Shown here: one piece after another, positions 36,091 through 55,226 of the stretch
Position numbering within the stretch: position 1 is the stretch's first letter
Layout of the letters: every line of letters begins with the position of its first letter
Assembly: GCA_963719225.1 (NCBI GenBank)
Contig: CAVRAY010000001.1
Span: 2,624,001-2,688,000 of the forward strand
Source: Thermoanaerobaculia bacterium
GTDB lineage: Bacteria > Acidobacteriota > Thermoanaerobaculia > UBA5066
DNA length: 64,000 nt
Direction of reading: 5' to 3'
Made by a program: the position numbers and the translations under genes
The notes under the pieces: generated by a model
Seen by the model: only the letters and a program-made list of their open reading frames with translations
The model's database searches: none
What the model was told of the DNA's origin: nothing

Positions 36091-36110
36091 CCGGTTCCCC
36101 GTAAGACGTT

Positions 36111-36139
36111 AGCCTATGGTGACTTACCGCCCCTGTCAA
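36111..36139 (-). promoter_or_regulatory. Sigma70 promoter upstream of rodZ
   Basis: TTGACA (36139-36134), 17-nt spacer, TAGGCT (36116-36111). Confidence 0.65.
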
Positions 36140-36878: not shown

Positions 36879-36879
36879 G

Positions 36880-37689
36880 TCAGCCCTTCGTCGTCGCAGC
36901 CGCGAGCGCGCGCACGAGGCCCGCGGCGGCTTCGACGGGATCCCGGCCCTCCTGAAGGGCCTCTTCCATCGAGCCCACGACCGCGCTACCGACGACGACT
37001 CCGTCCGCGAAGGAAGCGACGGCGCGCACCTGCTCCGCCGTGGAGACGCCGAAGCCGACCGCGATCGGAAGGCGTGGCACGTTCTTCCGGACGCGGGCGA
37101 CGAGCGCCTCGAGCCCAACGGGAAGCTCCGTGCGCGCTCCCGTGATGCCCGCGCGCGACACGACGTAGAGGAACCCGCGCGACAGCGATCCCGCCCGGCG
37201 GATACGCCCGTCCGGAGAGGTCGGCGCCACGAGATACACCGGATCGAGCTTCGCGCTCTTCAGGATCGACGCGAATCCGCGGCCCTCCTCGGGCGGAAGG
37301 TCCGTGACGAGAACCCCGTCCGCACCCGCCTCGGCCGCGCGGTGCGCGAATTCGGCCTCGCCCATCGCGAGGATCGGGTTCGCGTAGGTGAAGACCACGA
37401 CGGGTGCTGCGAAGCGGGCGGCGCGCAGCTCCGCGAGCAGCGAGAGAGCCGCCGGCAGCGTCGTCCCCGACGCGAGCGCGCGCTCGCTCGCGCGCTGGAT
37501 GACCGGCCCGTCGGCGAGAGGGTCGCTGAAGGGGATCCCGAGCTCGACGACGTCGGCCCCGGATTCCGCGAGCGCGGGCAGGAGCCGCCGCGTCGTCGCG
37601 AGGTCCGGGTCGCCGGCCTCCACGAACACCACGAGAGCCGCGCGACCCGAAGCCTTCGCTCTTCCGAAGGCGCGCCCGATGGGATTCAC
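36880..37689 (-). CDS. trpA: Tryptophan synthase alpha chain
   Basis: [33 protein letters not shown]. Confidence 0.95.
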
Positions 37690-38906
37690 AGCGTGACGCC
37701 CTCGCGCCGCGCCACGGAAGCGACGTCCTTGTCGCCGCGGCCGGAGAGATTCACGAGAAGGACCGTGCCCTTCGGCCGTCGGGGAGCCTCGGCGATGGCC
37801 CAGGCGACCGCGTGCGCCGTCTCGAGAGCGGGAATGATGCCCTCGGTTTCGGCGAGGCGGTGGAAGGCCGCGAGAGCCGCCTCGTCGTCGACGGAGACGT
37901 ATCGCGTCCTTCCGAGCTCGGCGAGGCGCGCGTGCTCGGGTCCGACGGCAGGATAGTCGAGCCCGGCGGAGACGGAGTGCGTCGGGAGGACCTGCCCGTC
38001 CGCGTTCTGCAGGATGAGCGTGCGCGTGCCGTGGAGGACGCCGATCGAGCCCTGGCCGAAGCGCGCCGCGTGCTCGCCGGGCGAGAGGCTTCGGCCTCCG
38101 GCTTCGACCCCGACCATCTCGACCCCGGGGAAGGGAAGGAACTCCCGGAAGAGGCCGATCGCGTTCGAGCCCCCGCCCACGCAGGCCACGAGGAGGTCCG
38201 GCAGCCTTCCGAGAAACCTGCGGCTCTGAGCGAGGGCCTCGCGTCCGATGACCGCGTGAAAGTCGCGGACCATCGTCGGAAACGGATGCGGTCCCAGGAC
38301 CGAGCCGAGGACGTAGTGCGTCGTCGCCGTCGACGCGACCCAGTCGCGCATCGCCTCGTTGATCGCATCCTTCAACGTGCGCGTGCCGCCCATCACGGGC
38401 ACGACCGTCGCGCCGAGGAGCTTCATGCGGTAGACGTTCAACGCCTGGCGCTCCACGTCCACGGCCCCCATGTAGACGACACACGAGAGCCCGAGGAGCG
38501 CGCAGGCCGTGGCCACGGCGACGCCGTGCTGGCCGGCACCGGTCTCCGCGATGACGCGGGACTTCCCCATGCGGACGGTGAGCAGAGTCTGGCCGAGCGC
38601 GTTGTTGATCTTGTGGGCGCCCGTATGGAGGAGATCCTCGCGCTTGAGGAAGATCCGCGCGCCCCCGAGGCTTTCCGAGAGCCGCTTGGCGTACGTGAGC
38701 GGCGTGGGACGTCCGGCGTACGTCTTGAGGAGATCGTCCAGCTCGCGCCGGAATGCAGGATCGCGCCGCGCGTCCCTGTAGGCACGGGAGAGCTCCTCGA
38801 GCGGCGCCATGAGCGTCTCCGGCACGAAGCGCCCACCGAAGGCGCCGAACCGGCCCTGCGCGTCGGCCTCCGGGGGACGGAAAGCGGCTCCTCTCGCTTC
38901 AGGCAC
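37686..38906 (-). CDS. trpB: Tryptophan synthase beta chain
   Basis: [33 protein letters not shown]. Confidence 0.97.
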
Positions 38907-40350
38907 CTCGAACCTCCTTCACGAACGCCGCGATCTTCGCCGGGTCTTTGACTCCCGGCGCCGTCTCGACGCCCGACGAGACGTCCACGACGTCGGGTCT
39001 CACCTTCCTCACCGCGTTCGCCACGTTCCCGGGCTGCAGTCCGCCCGCGAGCACCACGGGTCTCGAGCGATCGATCCCTTCCAGGAGACTCCAGTCGAAG
39101 ACGCAGCCCGTGCCGCCTCCCGCTCCGGCGACGGACGTGTCGAAGTGGAGGGCATCGCCTTCGGCTTTGCTCGCCGAGGAGAGGTCGTCGCGGCCGACGC
39201 GAATGGTGTTCCAGAACGTGATGTCCGAAGAGAAGAATTCCTTAGAAGGTGAAAGAGCGGGGTTGGGCATTTGAACGACGTCCGGGCGGACAAGGTCGAC
39301 GATGCGCTGCACGTCCTCTTCCGTCGCCGTCTCGTCGAAAACCGCCACGACGCCCTTCACGCTGCCTTTCGCTTTCATTCGCAGAAGTCTCCCCTCTTCA
39401 GGCGTCAGTCGCCGCGGCGACCGCGGCGCGAAGACGAGGCCGATCCAGTCCACGCCCTGTTCCAGACAGGCATCCACGTCTTCCCCCCGCGTGATCCCGC
39501 AGATCTTGACCTCCGTCGCGTTCTCGCCGCGCAGCGCGCGCAGCGTCGCGGCGGGGTCCGTAGCCTTGAGAAGCGTCTCACCCACCAGAAAGGCACCATA
39601 GCCCGCGGCGGCGAGCGCCTCGACATCGTGCCGCGACCGGATGCCGCTCTCGGCCACGCGCGCGACCGACGCCGGAAGGAGCGCGCCGAGGCGCGCCATT
39701 CCGGCCAGGTCGACTTCGAAAGTCCTCAAGTCGCGTGAATTCACGCCGACGATCTCGGCGCCCGCGCCGAGCGCCCGCTCGATCTCCCCCTCGTCGTGCG
39801 CTTCCACGAGAACCGCGAGTGCGCGGGACCTCGCGGCCGCATGGAGCCGCCCGAGGGTGGCGTCATCGAGGGCCGCGACGATGAGAAGCACGGCGTCGGC
39901 GCCCAGAGCGGCCGCAAAGTCCAGCTGGATCTCGTCCACCACGAAGTCCTTCATGAGGACGGGCAGGCCCGACGCCGCCTTCGCGCGTGGCAGCCACGAG
40001 GGGTCGCCGCCGAAGAAATCCTGCTCGACGACGACGGACACCGCCGAGCCGCCGCCACGCCGGTAGGCGCGCGCGACGGTTTCGATGCGCGACGCGGCGT
40101 CGGGAAGGATCAACCCCGCGCTCGGCGAGCGGTGCTTGATTTCGGCGAGAAACACAGGAAGAGGAAGAGAAGAGATTTGCTTAGAAGGGGAAGAGAGGGA
40201 ACGCGCGAAGCCGACTCCGTCCGGCGGAGCAGCGGGCTGCGCTGCAGCGGCAGAGGCGCGCACCTGGGCACCCATCTTGGCGGTGAACTCCCCCGCCGCG
40301 ATGCGCCGCCGCTTTGCCGCGAGAATCTCGCTCAGAACCGATTCGCCCAC
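38899..40350 (-). CDS. trpCF: Bifunctional indole-3-glycerol-phosphate synthase / PRA isomerase
   Basis: [26 protein letters not shown], then VKICGIT, GGTG..FDW, LAGGL, DVSSGVE in one frame. Confidence 0.92.
39227..39399. repeat. Intragenic motif in the TrpF domain with a weak inverted partner
   Basis: Minus 39227-39257: TCTTTCACCTTCTAAGGAATTCTTCTCTTC. Plus 39372-39399: CTTTCATTCGCAGAAGTCTCCCCTCTTC. Confidence 0.65.
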
Positions 40351-40390
40351 CCCTCTTACCCCTTCTAAGCAATCTTCAATCTTCTCTCTC
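40157..40390. repeat. Inverted motif pair in trpC and at the trpD/trpC junction
   Basis: Minus 40157-40197: CTCTCTTCCCCTTCTAAGCAAATCTCTTCTCTTCCTCTTCC. Plus 40353-40390: CTCTTACCCCTTCTAAGCAATCTTCAATCTTCTCTCTC. Confidence 0.82.
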
Positions 40391-41419
40391 GTCCCCTCGC
40401 GAGATCCGAATGAGATCTTCGAGAGCCGTCGCCGCTTTCCCGTCCTCGAGCGCGGCCTCGGCCCGCGCCACGCCTTCCCGGAAATCCGAGGCGATGCCCG
40501 CCACGACGAGCGCGGCGGAGGCGTTCATGAGCACGACGCTCCGCGCGTCGCGCCGGAAGCCGCCGAGGACGGCCCGCAGAATCTCCGCGTTCGTCACGGC
40601 GTCTCCGCCACGGAGCGCGTCGGGGCTGCCATCGTCGAGGCCGAAGTCCACCGGGCCGAGCTGCAGAAGCTCGACGTCCCCGCCGCGAACCTCGGCGGCG
40701 AAGGTGCGGCCGAAGGGCAGGAGCTCGTCCCCTCCCGTCTCGTGCGAAAAGACGAGTCCGTGCTCCGTCCCGAGCGCCGCGAGGGCGCCGGCGATCACCG
40801 GGACGCGCTCGGGATGATCGACGCCGACGATCTGACGTGTGACGCCGGCGGGATTCGAAAGAGGCCCGGCGAGGTTGAAGACGGTGCGCAGGCCCAGCTC
40901 GCGCCTGAGCGGACCGACCTTCTTCATCACGGGGTGATAGAGCGGCGCGAAGAAGAACGTGACGTTCGCGCGGGCGAGCGCCTCGGCGGCGAGCACGGGC
41001 GACATCTCGATGTCGACGCCGAGCGCCGCGAGCACGTCGGCCGAACCGCAGGCGGAGGAAACCGCGCGGTTGCCGTGCTTGGCGACCGGCGCGCCGGCTC
41101 CGGCGGCGACGAAAGCGGCGGCCGTCGAGACGTTGAACGTGCCGAGTGAATCGCCTCCGGTGCCGCAGACGTCGATCGCGCGCGCGGCCAGCGCGGCATC
41201 CACCGGAGGCCTCAGCGAGCGCGCCCGGAGGGCGTCCACGGCGCCCGCCACGGCCTCGACCGTCTCGCCCATGGCGGCCAGGGCCGAGAGAAGGCCTCCC
41301 GCGATCGCCGCCGGGATCTCCTCGTCGAGGAGCGCCGAGACGGCGCTCCTCGCGTCCTCGCGCGTCAGGCGCCTTCCACGCGTCACGGAATAAAGCGCGC
41401 GATGGGCCGCCGTCGTCAT
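40376..41419 (-). CDS. trpD: Anthranilate phosphoribosyltransferase
   Basis: DVCGTGGD..TFNVST, KHGNRAVSS.CGSAD, RTVFNLAGPL.NP. Confidence 0.95.
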   Translation of the reverse strand: MTTAAHRALYSVTRGRRLTREDARSAVSALLDEEIPAAIAGGLLSALAAMGETVEAVAGAVDALRARSLRPPVDAALAARAIDVCGTGGDSLGTFNVSTAAAFVAAGAGAPVAKHGNRAVSSACGSADVLAALGVDIEMSPVLAAEALARANVTFFFAPLYHPVMKKVGPLRRELGLRTVFNLAGPLSNPAGVTRQIVGVDHPERVPVIAGALAALGTEHGLVFSHETGGDELLPFGRTFAAEVRGGDVELLQLGPVDFGLDDGSPDALRGGDAVTNAEILRAVLGGFRRDARSVVLMNASAALVVAGIASDFREGVARAEAALEDGKAATALEDLIRISRGDERED

Positions 41420-41985
41420 GCGAGCCGCCCGGCGACGAAATTCTTCAGGAGACGCTCCCCCTGGGGCGTGAGGATCGACTCGGGATGGAACTGCACGCCC
41501 ACGAGCGGGAGTGTCCGGTGCGCCAGTCCCATCACGAGGCCGTCCGCGCTCGTCGCCGTGACGCGCAGCGCGGCGGGTACCGAATCCTTCTCGACGACGA
41601 GGGAGTGATAGCGCGTGGCCGTGAACGGGTTCTCGAGGCCTTCGAAGAGCCCTCTCCCGTCGTGCGCGATCTCGGAGGTCTTTCCGTGCATGAGGACGGG
41701 CGCCCGGGAGACCTTTCCGCCGAAGACGGCGCCCAGAGCCTGATGGCCGAGACACACGCCCAGGAGCGGGATGGTCTCGTTCCGGCGGAAGAGCTCGCAC
41801 GAGATCCCGGCATCCTCGGGGCGGCCCGGCCCCGGTGACACGACGAGCCGGTCGGGCTTCGCGGCGAGAACCTCGTCCACGGACAGGGCGTCGTTCCGCA
41901 CCACGCGGACGTCGTCGTCGAGGGTCGACAGAATCTGGACGAGGTTGTATGTGAAGGAATCGTAGTTGTCGATCACGAGGATCAT
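41416..41985 (-). CDS. trpG: Anthranilate synthase glutamine amidotransferase subunit
   Basis: IDNYDSFTYNL, SPGPG, GVCLGHQ, QFHPES. Confidence 0.95.
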   Translation of the reverse strand: MILVIDNYDSFTYNLVQILSTLDDDVRVVRNDALSVDEVLAAKPDRLVVSPGPGRPEDAGISCELFRRNETIPLLGVCLGHQALGAVFGGKVSRAPVLMHGKTSEIAHDGRGLFEGLENPFTATRYHSLVVEKDSVPAALRVTATSADGLVMGLAHRTLPLVGVQFHPESILTPQGERLLKNFVAGRLA

Positions 41986-43364
41986 CGGTACGTCCCCGCT
42001 CTCTCCACGGCGCGCATGAGAGCGCGCGCCTTGTTCTCGCATTCGGTGGCCTCGGACTCTGGATCCGAGTCCGCGACGATCCCCGCCCCGGCCTGGATGT
42101 GCATCGTGCCGTTCGCCACGACCGCCGTTCGAATCGCGATCGCGACGTCGAGGTTGCCGGCGAAGTCGAGATAGCCCACGGCTCCCCCGTAGGCCCCCCG
42201 TCTCACGGGCTCGAGATCCTCGATGATCTCCATCGCGCGAATTTTCGGCGCCCCGGTCAGCGTGCCCGCCGGAAACGTGGCGGTCAGCGCATCGACGGCG
42301 CCCTTGTCGGGCGCGAGGACGCCCGTCACTCGCGACGCGATGTGCATGACGTGCGAGTAGCGCTCGACGTGGAAGAAGTCCTTGACCCGGATGCTGCCGG
42401 CCTTCGCGACCCGGCCGAGGTCGTTCCGGCCGAGGTCCACGAGCATCACGTGCTCGGCGCGCTCCTTCGGGTCGGCGACGAGCTCCCTCTCGAAGGCGAG
42501 GTCCTCCTCCCGCGTCGCCCCACGCGGCCGGGTCCCGGCGAGCGGAATCGTCTCGGCCGTCGACTCTCCCGCTGAGGCGGCCACGTGGACGAGACGCTCG
42601 GGGGACGCGCCGAAGATCGCGCCGTGAGGCGTTCTGAGGTAGTACTGGTAGGGCGAGGGACTGAGGGAGCGCAGGGCGCGATAGACCGCGAAGGAATCGC
42701 CCGTGAACGGCGCGGACCACCTCCGCGAGAGGACGACCTGGAAGACGTCCCCCGCGCGGATGTGCTCCTTCGCGCGCTCGACGGCGGACAAGAAGGACGG
42801 AAGAGGAAGAGATTCTTCGAATGAGAGAGAGGGGGACGGAGCCGGAGCCGTGGGCACGGGCGTCGCGGTGGCGCGGGCTTGAAGGTCCCGTAGCCTTTCG
42901 AAGGCTCTCTTGTCCTCGCCGGTTCCTTCCCCGGCGTGGGTGACGAAGAGAAGCCGGTGACGCACGTGATCGAACGCGATGACCGCGTCGAAGATCCCGA
43001 ACCAAGCGTCGGGCATCCCGATCGGGTCAGGCTTCGAGTCGGGCAGCCGCTCGAGCCGGCGCACCGCGTCGTAGCCCACGTAGCCGACGGCCCCGCCCGT
43101 GAAGGGAGGCAGGTCCTCGCCTCCCGCCGCCGTCACGTGGCGAGGAAGCGTCCGGAGCGCGTCGAAGGGATCGCTCGCCCGGCCCGAGATCTCGCCCGAC
43201 GGCGACGCGCCCAGGAACGACCAGCGCGCGACACGGTCTCCGCCCTCGACCGATTCGAGGAGGAAGCACGGCCCACCCCCGGAGAGGAGTCCACGCATCA
43301 ACGCGACCGGAGTCGTGAGATCCGCCGGCTGCTCGACGACGACCAGCTGCCCGGGCGCTTTCAC
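41982..43364 (-). CDS. trpE: Anthranilate synthase component I
   Basis: [44 protein letters not shown]. Confidence 0.95.
42799..42915. repeat. Intragenic motif in the trpE linker with a weak inverted partner
   Basis: Minus 42799-42831: CTCTCTCTCATTCGAAGAATCTCTTCCTCTTCC. Plus 42893-42915: GCCTTTCGAAGGCTCTCTTGTCC. Confidence 0.55.
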
Positions 43365-44794
43365 GGCCTCTCTCGGCGCGGCGCCTTCCGGCGCTCGACG
43401 AGCTTCAGAGCGACCTCGCCCGGCGCGACGCCGCGCGCCGTCAGGAGAACGGCGAGATGGTAGAGCAGATCGGCCGCCTCGCCGGCGAGCGCTCCCGCGT
43501 CGCCGGTGACCGACGCGAGCGCCGTCTCGACGGCTTCCTCCCCCACTTTCTGGGCGATGCGCGGCACGCCGGCATCGAGGAGCTGATTCGTGTACGACCC
43601 GGCGACCGGCGACTCCTTCCGCGCGCGGACGACCGCGAAGAGAGCCGTGAGGTCGAGCGCGTCCGCGGATCCCGCATCCTTCCCGGCGACCCCCAGCGTC
43701 TCGACAGACGAGAAACACGAATCCGCCCCGGTATGGCAGGCCGGACCCGACGGACGAACGTCGTAGAGCACGGCGTCGTCGTCGCAGTCGAGCGAGATTC
43801 CGACGACGTGCTGCACGTTTCCGGACGTCTCCCCCTTCTTCCAGAGCTCCTTCCGCGATCGGCTGTAGAAGTGCGCCAGGCCGGTCTCCCGCGTCCTGGC
43901 GAGGGCCTCCGCGTTTGCCCAGGCGAGCGTGAGGACGTTGCCCGTCACGACGTCACGCATGATGACGGGGACGAGCCCGCTCGCGTCGTAGCGGGGCAGG
44001 AGAGTGCGCACGTGCGCCGGCGCGGGACGAACCGCGAGCCCGGCCCGGCGCATCGCTTCCTTGACCGCGCCTACCGTGAAGACGCGGTCGTGGAAAAGTG
44101 AGGCCGCGAGCACGGCGTCCGCGCCGCCGATGACGACGGCCTTTGCGAAATCGTCGAGCTGGCCGGCTCCCCCTGAAGCCACGATCGGAACCTCGACGGT
44201 CGCACGCACCGAACGGAGCATCTCGAGGTCGAACCCCGCCTGCGTTCCATCCGCGTCGACGGACGTCAGGAGGATCTCGCCCGCGCCCGCTGCGGCTGCC
44301 GCGGAGGCCCATCCCGTCACGGTCCGGTCGGTCGGACGGCGTCCCCCATGCGTCATCACGCGCATCACCGAGACGCCGCTCGCGTCGCGCAGACGCTTGC
44401 CGTCGATCGCGACGACGACGCATTGCGATCCGAATTGCCCGGCAAGCCTCGTGATGAGAGAGGGGTCTTCGACCGCGGCGGTGTTCACGGTCACCCGGTC
44501 GGCCCCGGCGCGGAGAAGCGCATCCGCGTCCTCGACGGACCGGACCCCTCCACCAACGGTGAACGGGATCGAGAGAGCTTCGGCCACGTGCGAGACGAGC
44601 TCCACGAGCGTGCCGCGCTTCTCGTGAGCGGCGCGGATGTCGAGGAATGCCAGCTCGTCGGCGCCTTCTGCCTCGTAGCGCACCGCGGCCTCGACCGGAT
44701 CGCCCGCGTCGCGGAGGCTTTCGAACGAGATGCCCTTGACGACGCGCCCGCCCGCGACGTCGAGGCAGGGGATGACGCGAACCGCGACCGTCAT
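43361..44794 (-). CDS. hisF-hisIE: HisF-HisI-HisE fusion
   Basis: [19 protein letters not shown], then [44 protein letters not shown] in one frame. Confidence 0.92.
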
Positions 44795-45588
44795 GAAGAC
44801 CTCCCCTGGTCGCGGGCCGCCCTCAGCCGCGACACTGTCGTGGCGCCGGAATGAAGCGCGCGGCCGAGGATGGCGCCGCGAGGTCCGCCCGCGAGCGCGT
44901 GGTTCACCAGCTCGAGGTCTTCTTCGCCGCGCATGCCGCCCGACGCGAGGATCTCGCCTCCGAACACGCGGCGCACGGCGGACAGGAGCTCGAGATTCGG
45001 GCCGGTCATGGCCCCGTCCCGCGAAACGTCCGTGACGAGAAGAGCCGAGACGCCGAGATCCGCGAGCGAGCGGGCGGCGGAAACGGCGTCTCCCATTCCG
45101 GCATCCTCGGTCCAGCCACGCACCGTCGGACGCCCGTCCTTGCAGTCGAGAGCGACCACGATGCGGGACGACAAAGACGAAGAGGAAGAGGAAGAGGAAG
45201 AGGAAGATTTTCTTAGAAGGTGCGTGAGGGCTGCGCGGTCGAGCAGCGCAAGGCTGCCGATAACCGCGCGTGCCCCGTTCCCCCTTTCTAAGAAATCTTC
45301 AACAGCTGCGGCCGTACGCAGCCCTCCCCCGACCTGCACAGCGACCCCCGCAGCGTCCGAAACAGAAAGAATTTCTTCGATCTCCTGTTCGTTGCTGCCC
45401 GTCCCGAACGCCGCGTCGAGGTCCACGACGTGGATCCCGTCGGCGCCCTCGGAAGCGAATCGCTCCGCGGCCCGGGCGGGGGGCTCGTCGTAATACGTCA
45501 CCTCTTCGCGCTTGCCTTTCAGCAGCCGGACGACGTGGCCGCCCATGACGTCGATCGCGGGCCAGAGAGCGAGTCGCTCGTCGCTCAC
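44791..45588 (-). CDS. hisA: ProFAR isomerase with poly-Ser insertion
   Basis: [35 protein letters not shown]. Confidence 0.92.
45171..45302. repeat. Inverted motif pair in hisA, one arm extended by (TCTTCC)n
   Basis: Minus 45171-45223: GCACCTTCTAAGAAAATCTTCCTCTTCCTCTTCC... Plus 45278-45302: TTCCCCCTTTCTAAGAAATCTTCAA. Confidence 0.82.
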
Positions 45589-46214
45589 GCCGCGTCCTCT
45601 CTAAGAAAATTCGAAAGGAGGATGCGGCCGCTTTCCGACGACTTCTCCGGGTGGAACTGGCAGCCCCAGACGCTTCCCCGCTGCACGATGGCGGCGAATT
45701 CCCCGCCGTGGTCGCAGGCCGCCGCGACGTCCGCGGCGTCGACGCCCTCGGGCCTGAAGGAATGGACGAAGTAGACCCAGCTTCCGTCCGGCAGTCCCTC
45801 GACGAACCCGTCGGGGCGACGGGTCAGGAGCTGGTTCCAGCCCACGTGGGGCGTGCGGACGCGCGCGCCGAAGGGGCGGACGCGGCCCGGCACGAGCCCG
45901 AGACCCTTGTGCACTCCGTGCTCCTCGCTTTCCTCGAAGAGGAGCTGGAAGCCGAGGCACAGGCCGAGGAGCCGCCCTCCGCGCTTGACGGCGGCACGCA
46001 CGGCGGACTCGAGGCCGGTCTCGAGAAGGCGGCTCATCGCCGGTTCGAAGGCGGCGACGCCGGGAAGCACGAGCCGTCGGGCGGATGCCACGCGGTCGAG
46101 GTCGGCCGTGAAGTCCACCTCCGCGCCGAGGCGACGGAACGCCCGGATCACCGAGGCCGTGTTGCCGACCCCGTAGTCGACGAGCGTGACGGACGAGCCG
46201 GCGGGCGTCGTCAT
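45585..46214 (-). CDS. hisH: Imidazole glycerol phosphate synthase glutaminase subunit
   Basis: DYGVGN, GLCLGFQ, PHVGWN, YFVHS, QFHPEKS. Confidence 0.95.
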   Translation of the reverse strand: MTTPAGSSVTLVDYGVGNTASVIRAFRRLGAEVDFTADLDRVASARRLVLPGVAAFEPAMSRLLETGLESAVRAAVKRGGRLLGLCLGFQLLFEESEEHGVHKGLGLVPGRVRPFGARVRTPHVGWNQLLTRRPDGFVEGLPDGSWVYFVHSFRPEGVDAADVAAACDHGGEFAAIVQRGSVWGCQFHPEKSSESGRILLSNFLREDAA

Positions 46215-46807
46215 GCCGTGAGCGTTCCTTTCGTCGAAGGCACGTCCGTGCCCGTGACCGCCATCGCCTGGCGCAGCGCGCGCGCCGCCGACTTGAAGAC
46301 CGCCTCGGCCGCGTGATGGCCGTTCTTCGCGCGGACGACGTCCACGTGAAGGTTGAACTTGCCGCGAAACGCGGCGGACTTCCAGAATTCCTCGACGAGC
46401 GCGAACGGAAAGTCCTTCGTGACGAGGAGGAGCTCCTTGTCGACCGGCGACTCGAAGACGATGTAGGGCCGGCCCGAAAGGTCGACGACGGAGCGCGCGA
46501 GCGCTTCGTCGAGGGGGACGAGGGCCGTCCCGAATCGTTCGATTCCCGCCCGCGAGCCGAGCGCCTGGTCGAGCGCCTCGCCGAACGCGAGGCCGACGTC
46601 CTCGACGGTGTGATGGGCGTCGATGTACACGTCCCCCGCCGCGCGCACCGTGAGGTCGACGCGCGCGTGCTTCGCGATCGTCTCGAGCATGTGCGACAGG
46701 AAGCCCACCGGCGTCTCCACGTCCGCCCGTCCGTCGCCGTCGAGAGCCAGGGCCAGGGAAATGGACGTCTCCTTCGTCTTCCGCTCGACCGTTCCGGACC
46801 GGCTCAT
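46211..46807 (-). CDS. hisB: Imidazoleglycerol-phosphate dehydratase (monofunctional)
   Basis: RKTKET, DAHHTVEDVG, DLSGRP, NGHHAAEAVFK. Confidence 0.95.
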   Translation of the reverse strand: MSRSGTVERKTKETSISLALALDGDGRADVETPVGFLSHMLETIAKHARVDLTVRAAGDVYIDAHHTVEDVGLAFGEALDQALGSRAGIERFGTALVPLDEALARSVVDLSGRPYIVFESPVDKELLLVTKDFPFALVEEFWKSAAFRGKFNLHVDVVRAKNGHHAAEAVFKSAARALRQAMAVTGTDVPSTKGTLTA

Positions 46808-47870
46808 ATCACCTCCAGGAAGGACTCGAGGAAGAGATCGTTCTCGGCCTGTGACCCGATCGAGACCCGCAGCCGTCCGGGCGCAGCCGACGTCATGTCG
46901 CGGACGAGGATGCCCCGGTCGAGGAGGCCGCGGCGCACCCGCGGCGCATCGGCCCCCGGGGGCGTACGAAGAGGAAGTTGGAACGCGAGCTGGCGACGGC
47001 GGAGCCGGCAGCGCGAAGCGTCGCGGCGACCCGTTCACGTTCCGCCGCGATCCTCCTCACGTGCTCCCGCGAAACCTCCGGATGGGAGAGAACGGCGATG
47101 GCCAGCTCCTCGGCCGCGAGGTCCACGCTGAACGGCAGGATGGCCTTCTCGACCTCGCGGACGAGCGCGGGATCCGCGACCGCATATCCGATGCGAAAGC
47201 CCGCCGCCGCGTAGGCCTTCGAAAGGGTGCGGAAGACGACGAGGTTCGCGCGCGGGCCGACGAGGGGGAGCGCATCGTCCGCCGGCTCCGCGAAGTCCAC
47301 GTACGCCTGATCGAGAAGGACGACCCGGGCGGCGTCGAGGAGGCGCTCCAGGAAATCTTTCCCGACGACGCCGCCGGTCGGGTTGTTCGGCGAGCAGACG
47401 AGCGGAACGGCGCCCGGCTCCCGCGAGGCTTCGAGGAACGCGTCCTCGGCCAGCGCGAAGTCGGGTCCGGTGCGCGGCACCTCGGCGACACGCGAAGAGG
47501 CGATCGCGGCGATCTGCCGGTAGAGCGAGAACGTGGGCGTCGGGAGCACGAGGGTCCCTCCGCCGGCAAACACGGACACGGCGGCCAGGATCACCTCTCC
47601 CGAGCCGTTCCCGACGACGATCTCCTCCGGGCGTCGGCCGACCGCGTCCGCGATGGCCCGTTTCAGGCGCGGCGCTCCGAATTCCGGATAGCGGCCCCAC
47701 CTTTTCGCCGCGAGGCGCGCGAGGACCTCGGTGCGGATCTCCTCGGGCACGTCGAACGGCGACTCGTTGAAGTCCAGCTTCGCGCGGAGCGGCGGCGCGT
47801 CCTCGGGGACGAGGCGATAGGCCTCGAGCGCCCGGATCTCCTCGCGGATCGGCACGGTCCGGCGCGTCAT
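46804..47870 (-). pseudogene. hisC: Histidinol-phosphate aminotransferase with an apparent 1-nt frameshift at ~46953-46962 (may be an assembly error)
   Basis: LDFNESP, GNGS, SPNNPTG, DQAY, RTLSKAY..AGFRIGY. The expected C-terminus (GILVRD...LRVSIGSQAEND..LE) lies in another frame and ends in an ATGA overlap with hisB. Confidence 0.85.
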
Positions 47871-49276
47871 GGCGCCCTCCGTTCGAGCGCGGCCGCGTGC
47901 GCCGCGAGGCCTTCGAAGCGCGCGAGAGCGGCGGCCGGCCGCGCGAGCCGGCGCGCGGCGTTCGCCGTCGCCTTCACCGATCGGCCCCAGCGCCGGAAAT
48001 CGCGCACGGAGAGGCCCGAGAAGCTGCGCGCCGCGCCCCCGGTCGGGAGCACGTGGTTCGGACCGGCGAGGTAGTCACCGAGCGCGGTCGGTGTCGAAGA
48101 GCCGATGAAGAGGGCGCCTGCGGTCGGAAGAAGCTTGCCGCTGAATCTCTCCGCGGACTTCCCCATCAACTGCACGTGCTCTGCGGCGATCTGCGAGCCG
48201 GCGGAAGCAGCGAGAGATATTTCTTTGAAAATGAAGATCCGGCCGCGCCGGAACAGCGAGGCGCGCGCGGCGGCCGCATTCACCTTCAAGGAAAACGAAT
48301 CGAGGGCTCGCAATTGGGCCGAGACCGCGGCCCGTACTGCGGCGGCGAGCCTGCTTGAATTCGTAAACAGAAGACACATCGCGTCCGGATCGTGCTCGGC
48401 CTGTGCCAGAAGATCCGCCGCCACGAGGTCCGCGTCGGCATCGGCGGAAGCGACGATCAGGACTTCCGACGGACCCGCCGGCATGTCGACCGCCACGAGG
48501 CCCGACACGAGGTGCTTCGCCGCCGCTACGAAGCGGTTGCCGGGGCCCACGATCTTCGCGACACCACAGACGGAGACGAGCCCCGCGACTCCGTGAGCGC
48601 CCCCCGCGAGCAGCACCTCGTCGACACACAGCTCGCGCGCCGCCCACCGGAGCTCGGGACTCGCCTCCCAAGCGTTGGGCGGCGTCGCGACGACCACGCG
48701 CGGCACCCCCGCGACGCGCGCCGGCACGACGCCCATCAGGAGCGAAGACGGATAGAACGCACGGCCTCCCGGGACGTAGACGCCGACGGATTCGAGCGGC
48801 ACGGATTTCTCGACGAACGAGACGCCGAGGGAGTCCTTGAAAGAGAAGCCCGACGAAGACGATGAGAGCTGCTTGCGGTGATACGCCTCGATGCGGCGGC
48901 GGGCGAGGCGGAAGGCAGAAGCGAAAGACTGATCCACACGAGATGGCTTTTCAAGACACGGATCAATACAGATCTTCTTAGAAGGGTAATGGGGCCGCTC
49001 GCTTTGTCGCACCGCCGTCGTCGGTCCGTCACGCCGCTGCCCCTCTCCCCCTTTCATAGAAACCGTTCTCTTCGAACCGTGGGCGCGCGCCGGTTTGAGG
49101 TCGAAGCGCTCCACGTACTCCCGGAGCGCGGGTTCCCCTCTTCGCAGAACGTCCTCCACAACCGGCAGGATCTGCTTCAACGTGGAGAAGTCGGGCGCCG
49201 CGCCCCGCCGGCTCTTCAACAGCGTTTCCAGCTCCCGTCGCCCCTCGCGCGTCGACGCGTCGACGGTCTTCATCAC
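47867..49276 (-). CDS. hisD: Histidinol dehydrogenase with an N-terminal-region insertion
   Basis: GVYVPGG, KIVGPGN, DMPAGPSE, QAEHD, AAEH, GDYLAGPNHVLPT. Confidence 0.93.
   Translation of the reverse strand: MMKTVDASTREGRRELETLLKSRRGAAPDFSTLKQILPVVEDVLRRGEPALREYVERFDLKPARAHGSKRTVSMKGGEGQRRDGPTTAVRQSERPHYPSKKICIDPCLEKPSRVDQSFASAFRLARRRIEAYHRKQLSSSSSGFSFKDSLGVSFVEKSVPLESVGVYVPGGRAFYPSSLLMGVVPARVAGVPRVVVATPPNAWEASPELRWAARELCVDEVLLAGGAHGVAGLVSVCGVAKIVGPGNRFVAAAKHLVSGLVAVDMPAGPSEVLIVASADADADLVAADLLAQAEHDPDAMCLLFTNSSRLAAAVRAAVSAQLRALDSFSLKVNAAAARASLFRRGRIFIFKEISLAASAGSQIAAEHVQLMGKSAERFSGKLLPTAGALFIGSSTPTALGDYLAGPNHVLPTGGAARSFSGLSVRDFRRWGRSVKATANAARRLARPAAALARFEGLAAHAAALERRAP
48212..48296. repeat. 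Inverted motif pair in the 3' part of hisD
   Basis: Minus 48212-48237: TCTTCATTTTCAAAGAAATATCTCTC. Plus 48278-48296: ATTCACCTTCAAGGAAAAC. Confidence 0.72.
48965..49073. repeat. Inverted motif pair bounding the hisD insertion
   Basis: Minus 48965-48990: ATTACCCTTCTAAGAAGATCTGTATT. Plus 49043-49073: CTCTCCCCCTTTCATAGAAACCGTTCTCTTC. Confidence 0.72.
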
Positions 49277-50913
49277 GACTTCCCGGTCCCCGCGCGCACG
49301 TTCGCGCGCAGGCGTTCGACGAACGCCGCGATCTCGGTCCGCCGCGCCACGAGCGCGCCACGCCCGAGGATGAGCGTCGCGCGGCTCGGAAGAATCGTCT
49401 CGATCTCGGCGAGTCCGTTCGCGGCCATCGTGGATCCCGACTCGATCAGGTCCACGACGACGTCCGTGAGCTTCAACGCGGCGGCGAGCTCCACGGAGCC
49501 CGCGAGAGGAACGATCTCGTGAGCGATCTTCCTCTCGTCGAAATAGCGGGCGGCGAGGCGGCGGTACTTCGTTCCCACGCGCACGGGCTGCCCGTCCGGT
49601 CTGAAAGTCTCCCCGGCCCTCCCGATGAGCGACAGTCGGCACGCTCCGAAGGGCAGCTCGACGGGCGACGTCACGTCCTCTCCGCTCTCGGCGACGCGGT
49701 CACTGCCCACGATGCCCAGATCGGCGCCTCCGTGCGCCACGTAGGTTGGCACGTCGTCGTCCTTGAGCAGAAGGAGCTCGAAAGCGCCGTCCGCCGCGGA
49801 AACGAGAAGACGCCTGCCGTCCGGGTCGTCGAACGCAGCGCCTGCCGCGCGGAGCACCGCGAGCGCCTGCGGCAGGAGCCTTCCCTTGCCCACGGCGATC
49901 CGGAGGGGTCGCGTTCCCCCGTCCGCGTCGGCGCCGTCGATCGCGGCGCCGAGCGCCTCGAGCCCGATGCAGAACCCGAGAGCGGGTGCGGCTGTTCCAA
50001 AGCGAGCGAGGAGGCCGTCGTACCGGCCGCCTCCGGCGATCGTACCCTCTCCGCCCGAGGCGTCCACGCTGAACGTGAGCCCCGTGTAATAGGGAGCCAA
50101 CGGGGTATCCGCCAGGTCCACGACGACCGGCAAGCCGGGCCTTGCGGTTTTCGCCACGGCGACGGCCCGCGCGAGCTCCGCGGCAGCGCCCGCGAGAACC
50201 GGCAGCCGGAAGAGTCCCGAGCCGGAATCGAAGCCGACGAGGAGAGCACGGGCAACTTCCGAGGCGGCCTCTTCGGTCGCGCCCGACCGGAAGAGCAGCG
50301 CTTCGAGCTGCGTCACGTGCCGCGCCCGCGCCGTCGCGGCAGCCTCGGTGAGGCCCGCGCCCCCTCCGCGCGCCAGAGCCGGCGCGACGGCGGCGAGCAA
50401 CCGTTCGAGAAGGCCCGCCCAGCCCAGCGTCAGCCTCAGGCGCTCGGCAGGAACGTCCCCGAGACACGAGAGCGCGAGGGCGAGCATCTCGCCGTCGACT
50501 TCCGGCCGTCCGTCGCCGTAGCGCTCCGCTCCCACCTGCGCGAACTCCCGCCGCCGCCCGACGCCCGTCTCTTCATCGCGCACGACGTCGCCCCTGTAGA
50601 ACAGCGACACGGGATCCGAGATCGCGCCGAGGCGCGGCGCGACGACGCGTGCCGCCATGGGCGTGAAGTCCGCCCGAAGAGAAAGAGTGTTGCCCTGCCG
50701 GTCGAGGAACCGGTAAACACGCTCGTCTCCCTCGGCCGTCACGCCGGCGTAGGGATCCGCGAAATCGAGGACCGGGAGGATGACCTCGCGCAGGCCGGCC
50801 TCCTGGAGCTTCCGAACGACGGAATCCTCCGCCTTGCGGCGCCGCTCGGCCGCGTCGAAGAGGAACGCCTGTACCCCGCGCGGGAGGTTGGGATCGGGAC
50901 GGTCGGACTTCAT
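49273..50913 (-). CDS. hisZ-hisG: HisZ-HisG (short form) fusion, ATP phosphoribosyltransferase
   Basis: LPRGV.., LRADFT..AR, REFAQVGAE, YYTG, GGGRYD, ALGF, then LRIAVGKGRL, DVPTYV..G.ADLGIVG.D, GSVELA, DLIESG.T. Confidence 0.9.
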   Translation of the reverse strand: MKSDRPDPNLPRGVQAFLFDAAERRRKAEDSVVRKLQEAGLREVILPVLDFADPYAGVTAEGDERVYRFLDRQGNTLSLRADFTPMAARVVAPRLGAISDPVSLFYRGDVVRDEETGVGRRREFAQVGAERYGDGRPEVDGEMLALALSCLGDVPAERLRLTLGWAGLLERLLAAVAPALARGGGAGLTEAAATARARHVTQLEALLFRSGATEEAASEVARALLVGFDSGSGLFRLPVLAGAAAELARAVAVAKTARPGLPVVVDLADTPLAPYYTGLTFSVDASGGEGTIAGGGRYDGLLARFGTAAPALGFCIGLEALGAAIDGADADGGTRPLRIAVGKGRLLPQALAVLRAAGAAFDDPDGRRLLVSAADGAFELLLLKDDDVPTYVAHGGADLGIVGSDRVAESGEDVTSPVELPFGACRLSLIGRAGETFRPDGQPVRVGTKYRRLAARYFDERKIAHEIVPLAGSVELAAALKLTDVVVDLIESGSTMAANGLAEIETILPSRATLILGRGALVARRTEIAAFVERLRANVRAGTGKS

Positions 50914-52490
50914 GCGGGAATCTCAGGATGGGGATGAAGCGACTCTTCGAAGAATTGGAAAGCCATCCGCAAGCGGGAAGGCAGGCGCTCGAGAAGCTCT
51001 CTTGGAGTCGTCCGCTTTCCCGTGAAAAGCGTTGCCTGGCCCGCGGCCTGGAGCAGGAGCAGCGTCTGCCCATCCACGACGCGCGCCCCGGCAGCGCGTG
51101 CCGCCTTCGCGAGCTCGGTGCCGCCCTCTCGGTAGGGCGCGTCGATGACGAGCATACCGGGGCGGAGGAGGCCCGGGTCGCACGGGAGGGGATCCCCCGC
51201 GCGGAGACCGAGGGAGGTGGCGTTGACGATGACACTCGCGGCGGGCCATGCCGCTTCGGACTTCTTCGAAAGCGCGCGCACGCCGGTTTCTCTGGCGAGG
51301 TCTTCGCCGCGCTCCTTGGTCCGGTTCGAGAGGAAGACCTCCCATCCCCTTTTTCTAAGAACATCCACCGCGACCCGAGCCGCACCACCAGCCCCGAAGA
51401 CGATTGCGACCCCCGCATTCGCTTTCTCTTTCCTTTTCTCCCTCAAAGGATCTTCAATCACGGCCTCGAAGGCATCGCGATCCGTGTTTGTCCCGCGCAG
51501 TCGGAGCGGCTGGCCCGGGGCGCTCGACCTGAGCAGCGTGTTGACCGCCTTCTCGCCGTCCTCGTCCGTGCCGGCGAGATGCGCGGCCTCCTCCTTGAAC
51601 GGGATGGTCACGGACGCGCCGGCGAGAGGAAGTCCGAGGCTGTCGAACGTCGCGACCAGCGGCTCGAGCTCCTCCGTTAGCGAGCGCATTGCGAACGGTA
51701 CGTAGAGCGAATCCTGACTGAGCGCCTCGAAGCTCGCGTTGTGGAGGGCGGGCGAGAGTGAGTGCGAGACGATGCCTCCCAGGAGTCCGAAGAGCCGGGA
51801 CACCTTTCGCCTCCGGCCGACGCCGTAGATCTCCGCCAGGTCGAGGGCGAGGAGCTGCCCCGGCGCCGTCCCGCGCCCGGGAAGGAGGGCGCCGTACGCG
51901 AGCGAAGCCCCGAGATACGGCGCGAGTGCGCGCGTGCAGATGCCGACCTCTCCCATGCCGAACGTCGAGAGGCGCCCATCCCGATGGGCGGCCTGGAGCT
52001 CGAGGAGACGGCGGGCATCGCCTGAGTCGTTCGCCGTCGCCACGACTTTCACGAAGCGAGCCTGCGTCGCGAGCATCCGGGCAACGAGGGTGCTCATGTC
52101 GGCAGGGATGCCCTCCGGGTCATGAAGAGAGAGAATTTTCTTAGAAGGGGAAATGCGGGCGGCCTCGTCCCCGCCGTCGCGGCGGAACTCCACGTCGCCG
52201 AGTTCAAACCCGGCGTCCAGAGCCTTCGAAATCAGTCTCTGGGCCTCCCCTGCCGGTCCCCGGAACGTGCCGCCTTCTGATGCGGATCGGACGGTCGCAA
52301 CGAGTGTTCTTCCTTCAAAGCACGCGCGAAGCGCGCCGAATTCGGGCTCTTCGGACATGGCGTCGAGGCGCAGCTCCAGCGCGACCGAGGGAGGCAGCTC
52401 GGCGAGAGCGGAACATGCCCCCAGCGCTTCGGCGTTCGAAGCCGGAGCCACCGAGACGACGAGAAGCGTGTTTTCCGCGGTCTGGGCCAA
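50910..52490 (-). CDS. aroD-aroE: Type I dehydroquinate dehydratase-shikimate dehydrogenase fusion
   Basis: ELRLD, TVR...EGG, SLH, FGMG..G..TR, APGQ, then HSLSPALHN, SVTIPFK, AVNT, NTD, GAGGAA, NATSLG. TTG start inferred. Confidence 0.88.
   Translation of the reverse strand: MAQTAENTLLVVSVAPASNAEALGACSALAELPPSVALELRLDAMSEEPEFGALRACFEGRTLVATVRSASEGGTFRGPAGEAQRLISKALDAGFELGDVEFRRDGGDEAARISPSKKILSLHDPEGIPADMSTLVARMLATQARFVKVVATANDSGDARRLLELQAAHRDGRLSTFGMGEVGICTRALAPYLGASLAYGALLPGRGTAPGQLLALDLAEIYGVGRRRKVSRLFGLLGGIVSHSLSPALHNASFEALSQDSLYVPFAMRSLTEELEPLVATFDSLGLPLAGASVTIPFKEEAAHLAGTDEDGEKAVNTLLRSSAPGQPLRLRGTNTDRDAFEAVIEDPLREKRKEKANAGVAIVFGAGGAARVAVDVLRKRGWEVFLSNRTKERGEDLARETGVRALSKKSEAAWPAASVIVNATSLGLRAGDPLPCDPGLLRPGMLVIDAPYREGGTELAKAARAAGARVVDGQTLLLLQAAGQATLFTGKRTTPRELLERLPSRLRMAFQFFEESLHPHPEIPA
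51256..51459. repeat. Three intragenic motif copies in the AroE domain
   Basis: Minus, core at 51267: TTTCGAAGAAGTCC (weak). Plus 51344-51366: ATCCCCTTTTTCTAAGAACATCC. Plus 51435-51459: TTTCTCCCTCAAAGGATCTTCAAT. Confidence 0.55.
52124..52154 (-). repeat. Intragenic motif in the AroD domain
   Basis: ATTTCCCCTTCTAAGAAAATTCTCTCTCTTC (encodes ISPSKKILSL). Confidence 0.8.
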
Positions 52491-52519
52491 AACGAAAACC
52501 CCCTCCGGTCCGGAGGGGG
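52489..52519 (-). terminator. Intrinsic terminator (attenuator) of the aro-his-trp leader
   Basis: CCCCCTCCG-GAC-CGGAGGGGG followed by TTTTCGTTTT. Confidence 0.85.
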
Positions 52520-52559
52520 CTGGGTGAGTGCTACCTGAAAACCCGCGCGCCTCCGGACC
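52507..52559 (-). promoter_or_regulatory. Antiterminator pairing
   Basis: GGTCCGGAGG (52559-52550) is perfectly complementary to CCTCCGGACC (52516-52507), the terminator 5' arm and loop. Confidence 0.8.
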
Positions 52560-52591
52560 ACGATGGGCCGGCGGCGCGAAGCGCGGCCGGC

Positions 52592-52633
52592 TCAGCTGTG
52601 ATGCACGTGCCAGTGGCGCACGACGAAGATCAT
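52592..52633 (-). CDS. His/Trp-rich attenuator leader peptide MIFVVRHWHVHHS
   Basis: ATG ATC TTC GTC GTG CGC CAC TGG CAC GTG CAT CAC AGC TGA, immediately upstream of the antiterminator/terminator and the aro-his-trp genes. Confidence 0.85.
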   Translation of the reverse strand: MIFVVRHWHVHHS

Positions 52634-52642
52634 GACGGGTTG

Positions 52643-52672
52643 AGTAGACCCGAAACCCCGAGCCCCTGTCAA
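52643..52672 (-). promoter_or_regulatory. Putative sigma70 promoter for the leader and operon
   Basis: TTGACA (52672-52667, overlapping the cysS stop), 18-nt spacer, TCTACT (weak -10), 9 nt before the leader ATG. Confidence 0.5.
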
Positions 52673-54177
52673 GGCTTCCTCCTCCAACGCACGCCCTGGG
52701 GCGTGTCCTCGAGGACGATTCGCTTGCCGAGGAGCTCGTCGCGGATCGCGTCGGCGCCCTTGAAATCCCGGGCCTTCCGGGCCTGCCTTCGGGCCTCGAT
52801 GCGCTCCAGGATCCAGGTCTCGTCAAGGTCGATGGATTCGGAAGAGGATTTCTTGGAAGGTGAAGAGGGGACCGGCGCATCGGGAGCGGAAGCGGCCGAA
52901 CCCACCAGGATGCCGAAAACGTCGCCTGCGACCTCGCTCAAGAGACCTCGTGCGGCCGTCGCATCCGGCGCCGAAAGGTGCCCCGCTTCGAGATCCATGT
53001 TCGTCGCCTTGACGAATGAGAACAGCGCACCCAGGGCGGCGGCGGTGTTCAGATCGTCCTCGAGAGAGGAGAACACCGCGGCGCGCGCCGCCGTCACTCG
53101 CTCCGCGAAGCCCTCTCCCGCTGCCTCCGGCATATTCACCTTCGAAGAAATCTCCTCCTTTTCTCTTCTCCCCTCTCTCTCTCCCAGCCGCATGTCCAGC
53201 GATTCCAGTCGCTCGACCGCGGATGTCGCCGCCTTGAGCCCCTCGAGCGTGAAGTTCAGCTTCATGCGGTAGGGAACCGAGACGAGGAGATAGCGGATGG
53301 CGCGCGGCGAGAAGCCTTTCTCGAGGAGGTCGGGAAGCGTGTAGAAGTTCCCCTTGCTCTTCGACATCTTCTCGCCGTCCACGAGGAGGTGCTCGGCGTG
53401 GAGCCAGAGGTTGACGAACGTCTTCCCGGTCGCGCCTTCGCTCTGCGCGATCTCGTTCTCGTGGTGCGGAAAGATGTTGTCGACGGCGCCCGTGTGGATG
53501 TCGAAGGTCTCGCCGAGATACTTCATCGACATCGCGCTGCACTCGAGGTGCCAGCCGGGCCTCCCGCGGCCGAGCTCGGTCGTCCACGACGCGGACTCGG
53601 GCTCGCCTTCCTTCGCCGCTTTCCACACCGCGAAATCGCGGACGTCCTCCTTCTCGTACTCGTCGTCGGCGACGCGCGCTCCGCGTTTCACGGCCGAAAG
53701 GTCGATCTTCGAGAGCCTTCCGTAGGCCGGAAACGTCGCGATCCGGAACCAGAACGAGCCGTCGCTTTCGTACGTGTGTCCGCGGTCGGCGAGCTTCCGC
53801 ACGAGCGCGACCATCTCGGAGATGTGATCCGTGGCGCGAGGATAGAGCGCGGCCGGGACGACGCCGAGCGTGCCGAGGTCCTCGAAGAACGTCGCGATGT
53901 GCCCCGCCGTGAACTCGCGGAGCGGCAGCCCCGACTCCACGGCGCCACGGATCGTCTTGTCGTCGATGTCCGTGAGATTCATGATCTGGGTCGTCTCGAA
54001 AGAGAGAGCGCGGAACACGCGGCACATCACGTCCTCCCAGACGAACGTCCTGAGGTTGCCGATGTGCACGCGGTTGTAGACCGTCGGGCCGCAGGTGTAG
54101 AGCCCGACCTTCCCCTCTCGGACGGGTCTGAACTCCTCGACCGTGCGGGTCAGAGTGTTGAAGAGGCGCAGCGTCAC
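52669..54177 (-). CDS. cysS: Cysteine--tRNA ligase
   Basis: YTCGPTVY..HIGN, GRPGWHLECSAM, FPHHENEIAQ, KMSKS. Confidence 0.97.
   Translation of the reverse strand: MTLRLFNTLTRTVEEFRPVREGKVGLYTCGPTVYNRVHIGNLRTFVWEDVMCRVFRALSFETTQIMNLTDIDDKTIRGAVESGLPLREFTAGHIATFFEDLGTLGVVPAALYPRATDHISEMVALVRKLADRGHTYESDGSFWFRIATFPAYGRLSKIDLSAVKRGARVADDEYEKEDVRDFAVWKAAKEGEPESASWTTELGRGRPGWHLECSAMSMKYLGETFDIHTGAVDNIFPHHENEIAQSEGATGKTFVNLWLHAEHLLVDGEKMSKSKGNFYTLPDLLEKGFSPRAIRYLLVSVPYRMKLNFTLEGLKAATSAVERLESLDMRLGEREGRREKEEISSKVNMPEAAGEGFAERVTAARAAVFSSLEDDLNTAAALGALFSFVKATNMDLEAGHLSAPDATAARGLLSEVAGDVFGILVGSAASAPDAPVPSSPSKKSSSESIDLDETWILERIEARRQARKARDFKGADAIRDELLGKRIVLEDTPQGVRWRRKP
52841..53186. repeat. Inverted motif pair in the cysS C-terminal domain
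   Basis: Minus 52841-52867: CTCTTCACCTTCCAAGAAATCCTCTTC. Plus 53133-53186: TATTCACCTTCGAAGAAATCTCCTCCTTTTCTCTTCTCCCCTCTCTCTCTCCCA. Confidence 0.82.
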
Positions 54178-54298
54178 GTTGGGCGATTCTCGACGACCGC
54201 CCGGGATTTCGCCAGCGGACCGCCGCGGCTGCGGTTGGCACGTGTCTCGCGTGGCGGCCGCAGACCGGCCATCTTGACTCCACGTACGGAGGGATCCC

Positions 54299-55204: not shown

Positions 55205-55226
55205 CGCCTGTGCGCTATCCTCGAAG

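Follow-up and report, generated by a model that had tools for sequence, protein, structure and literature searches.

The DNA analysed here, a 64,000-nucleotide (nt) stretch of a Thermoanaerobaculia bacterium (GenBank assembly GCA_963719225.1, contig CAVRAY010000001.1, positions 2,624,001 to 2,688,000; hereafter the window), carries on its reverse strand a short leader, containing four codons for His and one for Trp, in front of a joined set of aroDE, his and trp genes. This leader is conserved in related genomes and is quite likely to act as a ribosome-stalling attenuator, which would activate the entire aroDE-his-trp operon whenever the charged form of either His-tRNA or Trp-tRNA is in short supply. 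The first-pass annotation, made from the letters alone, had proposed a single leader sensing both shortages, and the proposal is supported by the conservation of the leader, by the agreement between its codons and the genes downstream, and by the location of these codons within the predicted control window. The parts of the leader region are listed below in the direction of transcription.

52667..52672 (-): -35 box TTGACA, overlapping the cysS stop codon, read from the sequence.
52643..52648 (-): putative non-canonical -10 box, placed by spacing only.
52592..52633 (-): leader open reading frame (ORF) of 13 codons, with control codons His7, Trp8, His9, His11 and His12, and Phe at codon 3.
52609..52623 (-): segment A, codons 4-8/9, the predicted partner of D when the leader is untranslated.
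52581..52591 (-): segment B, directly after the leader stop codon, partner of C when a ribosome stalls upstream (from folding).
52565..52578 (-): segment C, partner of B (permissive) or of D (protector) (from folding and covariation).
52546..52559 (-): segment D, 5' arm of the antiterminator and 3' arm of the protector (from pairing with E and covariation).
52507..52519 (-): segment E, 5' arm of the terminator and 3' arm of the antiterminator (from sequence and folding).
52489..52507 (-): segment F (52507-52499) and the U-tract; F holds GGAGG at 52506-52502 (from the nearest in-frame start).

The 13-codon ORF at 52633-52592 translates as had been claimed, with His at codons 7, 9, 11 and 12, Trp at codon 8 and Phe at codon 3, and of the genome's 13,677 short ORFs starting with ATG it alone combines at least three His codons, at least one Trp codon and at least 30% His plus Trp. 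It lies between cysS and aroD-aroE, at the start of a string of 14 ORFs. The TTGACA box noted earlier is present at 52672-52667; the accompanying -10 box is non-canonical, and a promoter consensus scan returned no site, missing the -10 candidate as well. For comparison across the class, leaders were called by position only (promoter motif, ORF and terminator), which gave 96 calls at 144 anchor loci; codons were tallied over the last 14 codons of each leader, and a leader with at least two His and at least one Trp codon was counted as dual. Three calls with neither His nor Trp (L077, L102 and L105) were judged to be miscalls, which were kept in the operon-content tally and left out of the later analyses (93 leaders). 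The distance from the -35 motif to the leader start codon is 36-39 nt in 74 of the 93 called leaders, including those of families without an adjacent cysS, so the ORF would be nearly leaderless; the putative -10 box would place the transcription start 2-3 nt before the leader AUG.

Within its own family, the leader is kept at all 41 loci holding the region, with one further locus truncated, and the search of relatives for conserved His/Trp-rich short ORFs with covarying stems, suggested in the first-pass annotation, was successful for 41/41 family leaders and for two of the helices (C:D and D:E). Each of these leaders has 3-4 His and 1-3 Trp codons; His stands two codons before the stop in 41/41, and in 40/41 the position six codons ahead of the stop is taken by Trp, which is one codon off in the last. 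The N-terminal codons are variable, and all three stop codons are in use (TGA 19, TAA 12, TAG 10), a pattern that fits selection on the translated codons and not on the peptide. Sensing of Phe, which had also been suggested, was rejected: Phe occupies the codon-3 place in 20 of the 41 leaders, and the codon lies outside the control window. The close relatives carry the labels Thermoanaerobaculia or Acidobacteriota.

The perfect 10-base-pair (bp) antiterminator pairing described earlier was verified, 52559-52550 being the exact reverse complement of 52516-52507, and so was the GC hairpin with its U-tract at 52519-52489, composed of a 9-bp hairpin at 52519-52499 and a U-tract at 52498-52489 (4 U, CG, 4 U). 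This terminator is the longest (11 pairs) of 16 terminator-like sites in 36000-55500, where shuffles gave 9.8 +/- 3.3 sites, and the folding stability of the whole leader is unremarkable (z -1.75). In folding, the combination B:C plus D:E is mutually exclusive with C:D plus E:F, and the same two RNA states were predicted in 23 inspected leaders from 14 families despite their different letters. The protector first proposed, a pairing of GCCAC/TGG in the Arg-His-Trp codons with a sequence next to the antiterminator arm, was rejected (0.33 expected pairs; duplex of -8.3 kcal/mol versus -23.6 kcal/mol for C:D), and the protector is instead C:D, 52578-52565 with 52559-52546. A hisL-like A:B helix was likewise set aside in favour of A:D, which has 12.0 expected pairs without a ribosome (codons 4-8 with D; ensemble folding). 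The A:D helix is present in 22/30 leaders of family f1 and 21/25 of f2, and in just 3/21 and 1/7 in other groups.

Covariation was evaluated in 25 family sequences. In C:D, 4 of 9 pairs are changed on both sides, and in D:E, 3 of 7; for each helix 0/500 shuffles matched the score, and slid controls scored below both, with the caveats that kin sequences can beat shuffles, that the structure was taken from one row and that one row was badly cut. These counts concern C:D and D:E only, the B:C alignment being out of register and alignment A3 too invariant.

These helices suggest the following mechanism. A ribosome that reached the leader stop codon would cover B, so that C:D would form, E would be left to F and the terminator would follow. 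A ribosome stalled on codons 7-11 would leave B free to pair with C, which would open D for pairing with E; with D:E formed there would be no terminator and the ribosome-binding site of aroDE would be exposed. In the absence of a ribosome, the coding segment A would hold D through codons 4-8, and the operon would therefore stay off when the leader is untranslated. The E:F terminator would also hide the Shine-Dalgarno sequence of aroDE: GGAGG at 52506-52502 in arm F is likely to be this sequence, with a UUG start predicted at 52490 inside the U-tract, and a Shine-Dalgarno-like motif lies in arm F, 4-13 nt ahead of an in-frame start, in 75 of the 93 leaders and in 30/30 of the own family. 

This hiding of the ribosome-binding site could in principle be the main output. 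Both amino acids would then be sensed, with E:F acting chiefly by hiding the aroDE ribosome-binding site and with coupling or polarity silencing the remaining genes, as in the leaderless Cys attenuators of mycobacteria, for which the available text of 10.1101/834739 offers a precedent. The frequent Shine-Dalgarno-like motif, the apparently near-leaderless ORF, the 4-nt overlaps at 10 of the 13 gene junctions, the interruption of the U-tract at this locus and the weak U-tracts of f3 (mean 4.5 U of 9) and f14 (3.5) all agree with such an arrangement. However, U-tracts average 6.3-7.1 of 9 in f1, f2 and f5, and at some loci, where 23-55 nt separate the hairpin from the next start, a U-tract is present all the same, both of which fit termination, and we regard a mainly translational output as distinctly unlikely.

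Attenuation with termination would require that the position of the ribosome decide the fold. For this leader, full-length equilibrium folding under one ribosome mask gave the antiterminator at 0.75-0.97 with the ribosome on codons 7-11 or 7-10 and the terminator at 0.95-0.99 without a ribosome or with the ribosome at the stop. In attenuators the choice of fold is made before F is transcribed; for this reason a decision-point model, adopted after the full-length equilibrium result had been seen, was used to calculate how much energy it takes to free D at the point just before E emerges. This cost was 5 kcal/mol with the ribosome at His7, 7 at Trp8, 9 at His9, 7 at His11, 11 at His12 and 18 at the stop, placing both His and Trp codons inside the predicted control window. 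In 86 of 89 scorable leaders the cost differed by 2 kcal/mol or more between control codons and stop, covering 40/49 Trp and 78/98 His codons of the dual leaders, and the hisL leader of Escherichia coli, taken as a control, also switched. Every second leader (47/93) was compared with shuffles of its middle region, and the switch appeared in 39/47 leaders versus 10/282 shuffles. As a prediction, decision-point folding supports the switch geometry.

Across the class, the leader codon content tracks the downstream genes in both directions, as supported by the following counts. Where both his and trp follow, 29 of 39 loci have a dual leader, the others comprising 1 one-His leader, 1 His-only leader, 2 miscalls and 6 uncalled loci; where only trp follows, 32 of 46 have Trp with at most one His, none of the 46 has two His, 13 are uncalled and 1 is miscalled; and where only his follows, 5 of 8 are His-only, 0/8 have Trp and 3 are uncalled. 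Additionally, 22 of the 35 truncated loci carry dual leaders, and the 11 loci without either pathway have no leader. Related genomes with different gene content are instructive in this respect. The hisB family was unfound in 21/23 f2 and 5/5 f3 genomes searched; the two f2 genomes with hisB (G054 and G057) have it in this operon, behind leaders with 3-4 His and 1 Trp, and in G045, a member of the same genus, his genes are absent and the leader has 0 His and 1 Trp. A hisG tally that counts G037 as well was 2 of 24. Two genomes (G066 and G127) possess two leaders each, His-only before his and Trp-only before aroDE-trpE, an arrangement also seen, as judged by eye, in G103. The insertion of his genes into a Trp-only ancestor was considered and dropped, dual leaders standing before his and trp genes in 12 families; G310 and G225 were dropped as exceptions, their his genes not being followed by trp on the stretches seen.

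It is highly improbable that the peptide itself acts, either as a TnaC-like arrest peptide for a free amino acid or as a His-rich metal-binding micropeptide, with the hairpins merely forming the cysS terminator. The hairpin does lie 150 nt past the cysS stop, and His-rich peptides can bind metals. However, residue spacing and order vary freely between families, His is lost along with the his genes, antiterminator and protector covary, and the element persists without cysS upstream.

A closer alternative is that the leader in this genus senses histidine only, the Trp codon being kept by its pairing with D or as a weak remnant and the trp genes following the His signal. Consistent with this, only one Trp codon is present in 32 of the 41 family leaders, this codon lies inside the predicted 12-bp A:D helix, and G077 has his and trpEG behind a His-only leader. 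At the same time, C or G as the first base of codon 8 would strengthen A:D (-24.8 and -25.1 versus -22.6 kcal/mol) and is unseen in this GC-rich family, whose members are kin and not independent (n=41), yet Trp occupies this place in all but the one leader mentioned. Moreover, 9 of the 41 leaders have 2-3 Trp codons, as do leaders of other genera, and G045 retains its single Trp codon, without His, before a trp-only operon. With uncalled leaders filled in by a looser position rule, Trp is present in 35/36 leaders with trp downstream and absent from 8/8 leaders of his operons without trp. Sensing of histidine alone therefore seems unlikely.

Several observations weigh against a dual His/Trp attenuator and should be considered together. 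Full-length equilibrium folding with and without ribosome masking had a mixed outcome: the switch seen under one mask is not matched under a wider one (upstream all single-stranded), which leaves the terminator at 0.7-0.8 with the ribosome on His7-His9 and dominant in most relatives. The decision-point model fails on the E. coli trpL control, and under a larger footprint His12 falls outside the control window. The Trp codon is predicted to pair in A:D, so that part of its conservation may be structural. Independent pairs on trees (FastTree, unrooted) do follow the downstream genes, in 4/4 cases for His (p 0.125) and 2/2 for Trp (p 0.5), and so favour the dual reading, but each contrast set is too small for significance alone and f5 enters both; the His tree held 106/131 rows (25 close relatives dropped), and for the Trp tree the frameshift-rich locus L037 was left out and uncalled leaders were filled by the looser position rule. 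In the G077 case, a separate Trp leader precedes the second trpE. In four f11 genomes, 1-2 His codons remain in the control region alongside just a hisD-like gene and no hisB; no leader was found in G232, which has the joined genes, and none before the trp operons of f8 and f10. Finally, according to the available part of PMC1183508, control by one rate-limiting codon is sharp only if read-through is low, and a weaker Trp arm is therefore expected; with one codon versus four, the response to Trp would be weaker than that to His.

The element works like hisL, yet it stands outside the His_leader and Trp_leader families. Nothing in the window reached the Rfam gathering score, and the four hits at E <= 10 near the leader, all put down to chance, included neither family; we take His_leader (RF00514) to represent hisL and Trp_leader (RF00513) to represent trpL. 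The full hisL scheme has six segments, and trpL is a four-segment design. With hisL of Salmonella and E. coli the element shares a short leader ORF with clustered His codons and a succession of alternative helices, the last of which is an E:F terminator (the available text of PMC4046918 names AB and EF stem-loops). It differs from hisL in the Trp codon inside the control window, in an operon that also includes trp and aro genes, in the pairing of segment A with D and not with B (0.13 expected A:B pairs), in the apparently nearly leaderless ORF, in a terminator that overlaps the Shine-Dalgarno sequence and start of the first gene, and in the lack of a match to the His_leader covariance model. 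As in E. coli trpL, Trp codons occur in a leader ORF ahead of trpEGDCFBA, and relatives without his genes have 1-3 Trp codons and no His cluster; unlike trpL, the element has an extra B:C layer and added His codons, and it does not match Trp_leader.

Leaders for several amino acids are represented by thrL (Thr/Ile) and ilvL (Leu/Ile/Val), each covering one branched pathway, and to our knowledge all natural multi-amino-acid leaders described so far serve one branched pathway each. The present leader resembles thrL and ilvL in having several kinds of control codon in one leader with OR logic, and it differs from them in that two separate pathways share the operon and that the scaffold also occurs with His-only, Trp-only and Trp+Tyr sets. 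The Gelfand and Lyubetsky groups are said to have produced comparative surveys of attenuators. No natural His+Trp leader was found in the literature searched, although subscription surveys and supplements could hold one, and none is described in the available text of PMC4833913, PMC9413887, PMC1183508, PMC2965389, PMC4046918 and 10.1101/834739. Few attenuators had been annotated in this phylum as of 2010, as far as the accessible part of PMC2965389 goes. The engineered Salmonella hisL with two Ser codons (Ser-Ser at His4-His5) answers to His or Ser starvation according to the available portion of PMC4046918; this is a proof of principle for the OR gate and shows that OR logic is workable for switches of this type, although that leader is synthetic with two foreign codons and the present one is natural with one Trp codon. 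The mycobacterial polycysteine attenuators, as presented in the accessible text of 10.1101/834739, have a leaderless sensor ORF, as is predicted in near form for the present element, and likewise an RNA fold that masks the ribosome-binding site further downstream; unlike the present element, they respond to a single amino acid through control of translation, with no intrinsic terminator described there.

The genes that the leader would control form the following groups.

50910..52490 (-): aroD-aroE fusion, type I dehydroquinase plus shikimate dehydrogenase (Pfam PF01487, PF08501).
43361..50913 (-): hisZ-hisG fusion, hisD, hisC, hisB, hisH, hisA and hisF-hisIE fusion (NCBIfam).
36880..43364 (-): trpE, trpG, trpD, trpC-trpF fusion, trpB and trpA (NCBIfam).

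The earlier statement that aroDE, all his and all trp genes follow the leader is borne out by NCBIfam and Pfam for the genes listed, but "all his" was too wide: a histidinol-phosphatase gene is absent from the 14-ORF string, hisB being a monofunctional dehydratase (NCBIfam/Pfam). The overlaps of 4 nt include the hisIE/trpE junction, and the overlapped genes would make up one translationally coupled unit. The hisC gene (46804-47870, -) is frameshifted near 46960 in a C5/G5 run, and the HisC proteins of three relatives align across the two frames, the frameshift being a likely assembly error. In-frame, low-complexity, AT-richer Ser-rich inserts are found in hisA (45215-45270) and hisD (48690-48720), both on the reverse strand and with approximate coordinates. 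An ORF at 36114-36878 (-) without a Pfam match starts 1 nt past the trpA stop and is followed by a RodZ-like gene, and the operon may run on beyond trpA. TrpR-family repressor/HisR (PF01371), TRAP (PF02081) and T-box (RF00230) were not found in the genome (G000, 97% complete).

Variants of gene order and codon content were also noted elsewhere. In f3 leaders (L048-L050 and L203-L205) and in L114 (G189), Trp is accompanied by 2-4 Tyr codons before aroDE-trp without his, and such leaders could possibly serve as a Trp-or-Tyr sensor over the shared shikimate steps. In L192 (G091) and L086 (G235), a dual leader (4 His, 2 Trp) lies between aroDE and hisZ, which leaves aroDE outside its control there. 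A lone hisD-like gene precedes trpE at L106-L109 (f11) and L187-L188 (f8), with hisB (f11) or hisZG (f8) unfound, and at five f5 loci (L175-L179) aroDE-trpE is present without a following trpG or other trp genes. Many near-complete genomes of f2, f3, f8 and f10 have no his-gene match, which suggests that histidine auxotrophy has arisen repeatedly in the class. Of 20 his loci outside the class, one, L219 (G372), has the same aroDE-his-trp order; its leader (about 2380-2470) ends in 1 Trp, 1 Phe, 2 His and 1 Tyr codons, with a GC hairpin next. Four loci from other classes of the phylum (L223, L227, L234 and L235) have His-rich short ORFs before his operons unjoined to trp. Additionally, a 24-codon Leu/Val/Ile-rich leader-peptide attenuator candidate was seen outside the window (G000:C1:1090799, +), 35 nt past a -35 motif and with a strong terminator, before a probable ilvD-led cluster (by eye).

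Taken across the class, we consider it somewhat more probable than the contrary that Thermoanaerobaculia use one reprogrammable, near-leaderless attenuator cassette, combining termination with occlusion of the ribosome-binding site, whose codons have been repeatedly rewritten to match the operon: His+Trp where the pathways are joined, His-only or Trp-only following splits and losses, Trp+Tyr ahead of certain aro-trp operons and perhaps His+Trp+Phe+Tyr for a single lineage from outside the class, with the joined form being a natural OR gate across two pathways. The mechanism itself is textbook, and what distinguishes this case is that two separate pathways seem to be integrated by a single short leader. 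Among the relatives, one scaffold comes in a series of versions (His-only, Trp-only, Trp+Tyr and His+Trp), so that the number of sensor codons and the balance of OR-gate sensitivity versus wasteful co-induction would be directly testable by codon swaps, and the leader offers a compact two-input RNA switch. If the cassette is indeed reprogrammable, the class would hold a naturally occurring series from which the evolution of sensor specificity could be read.

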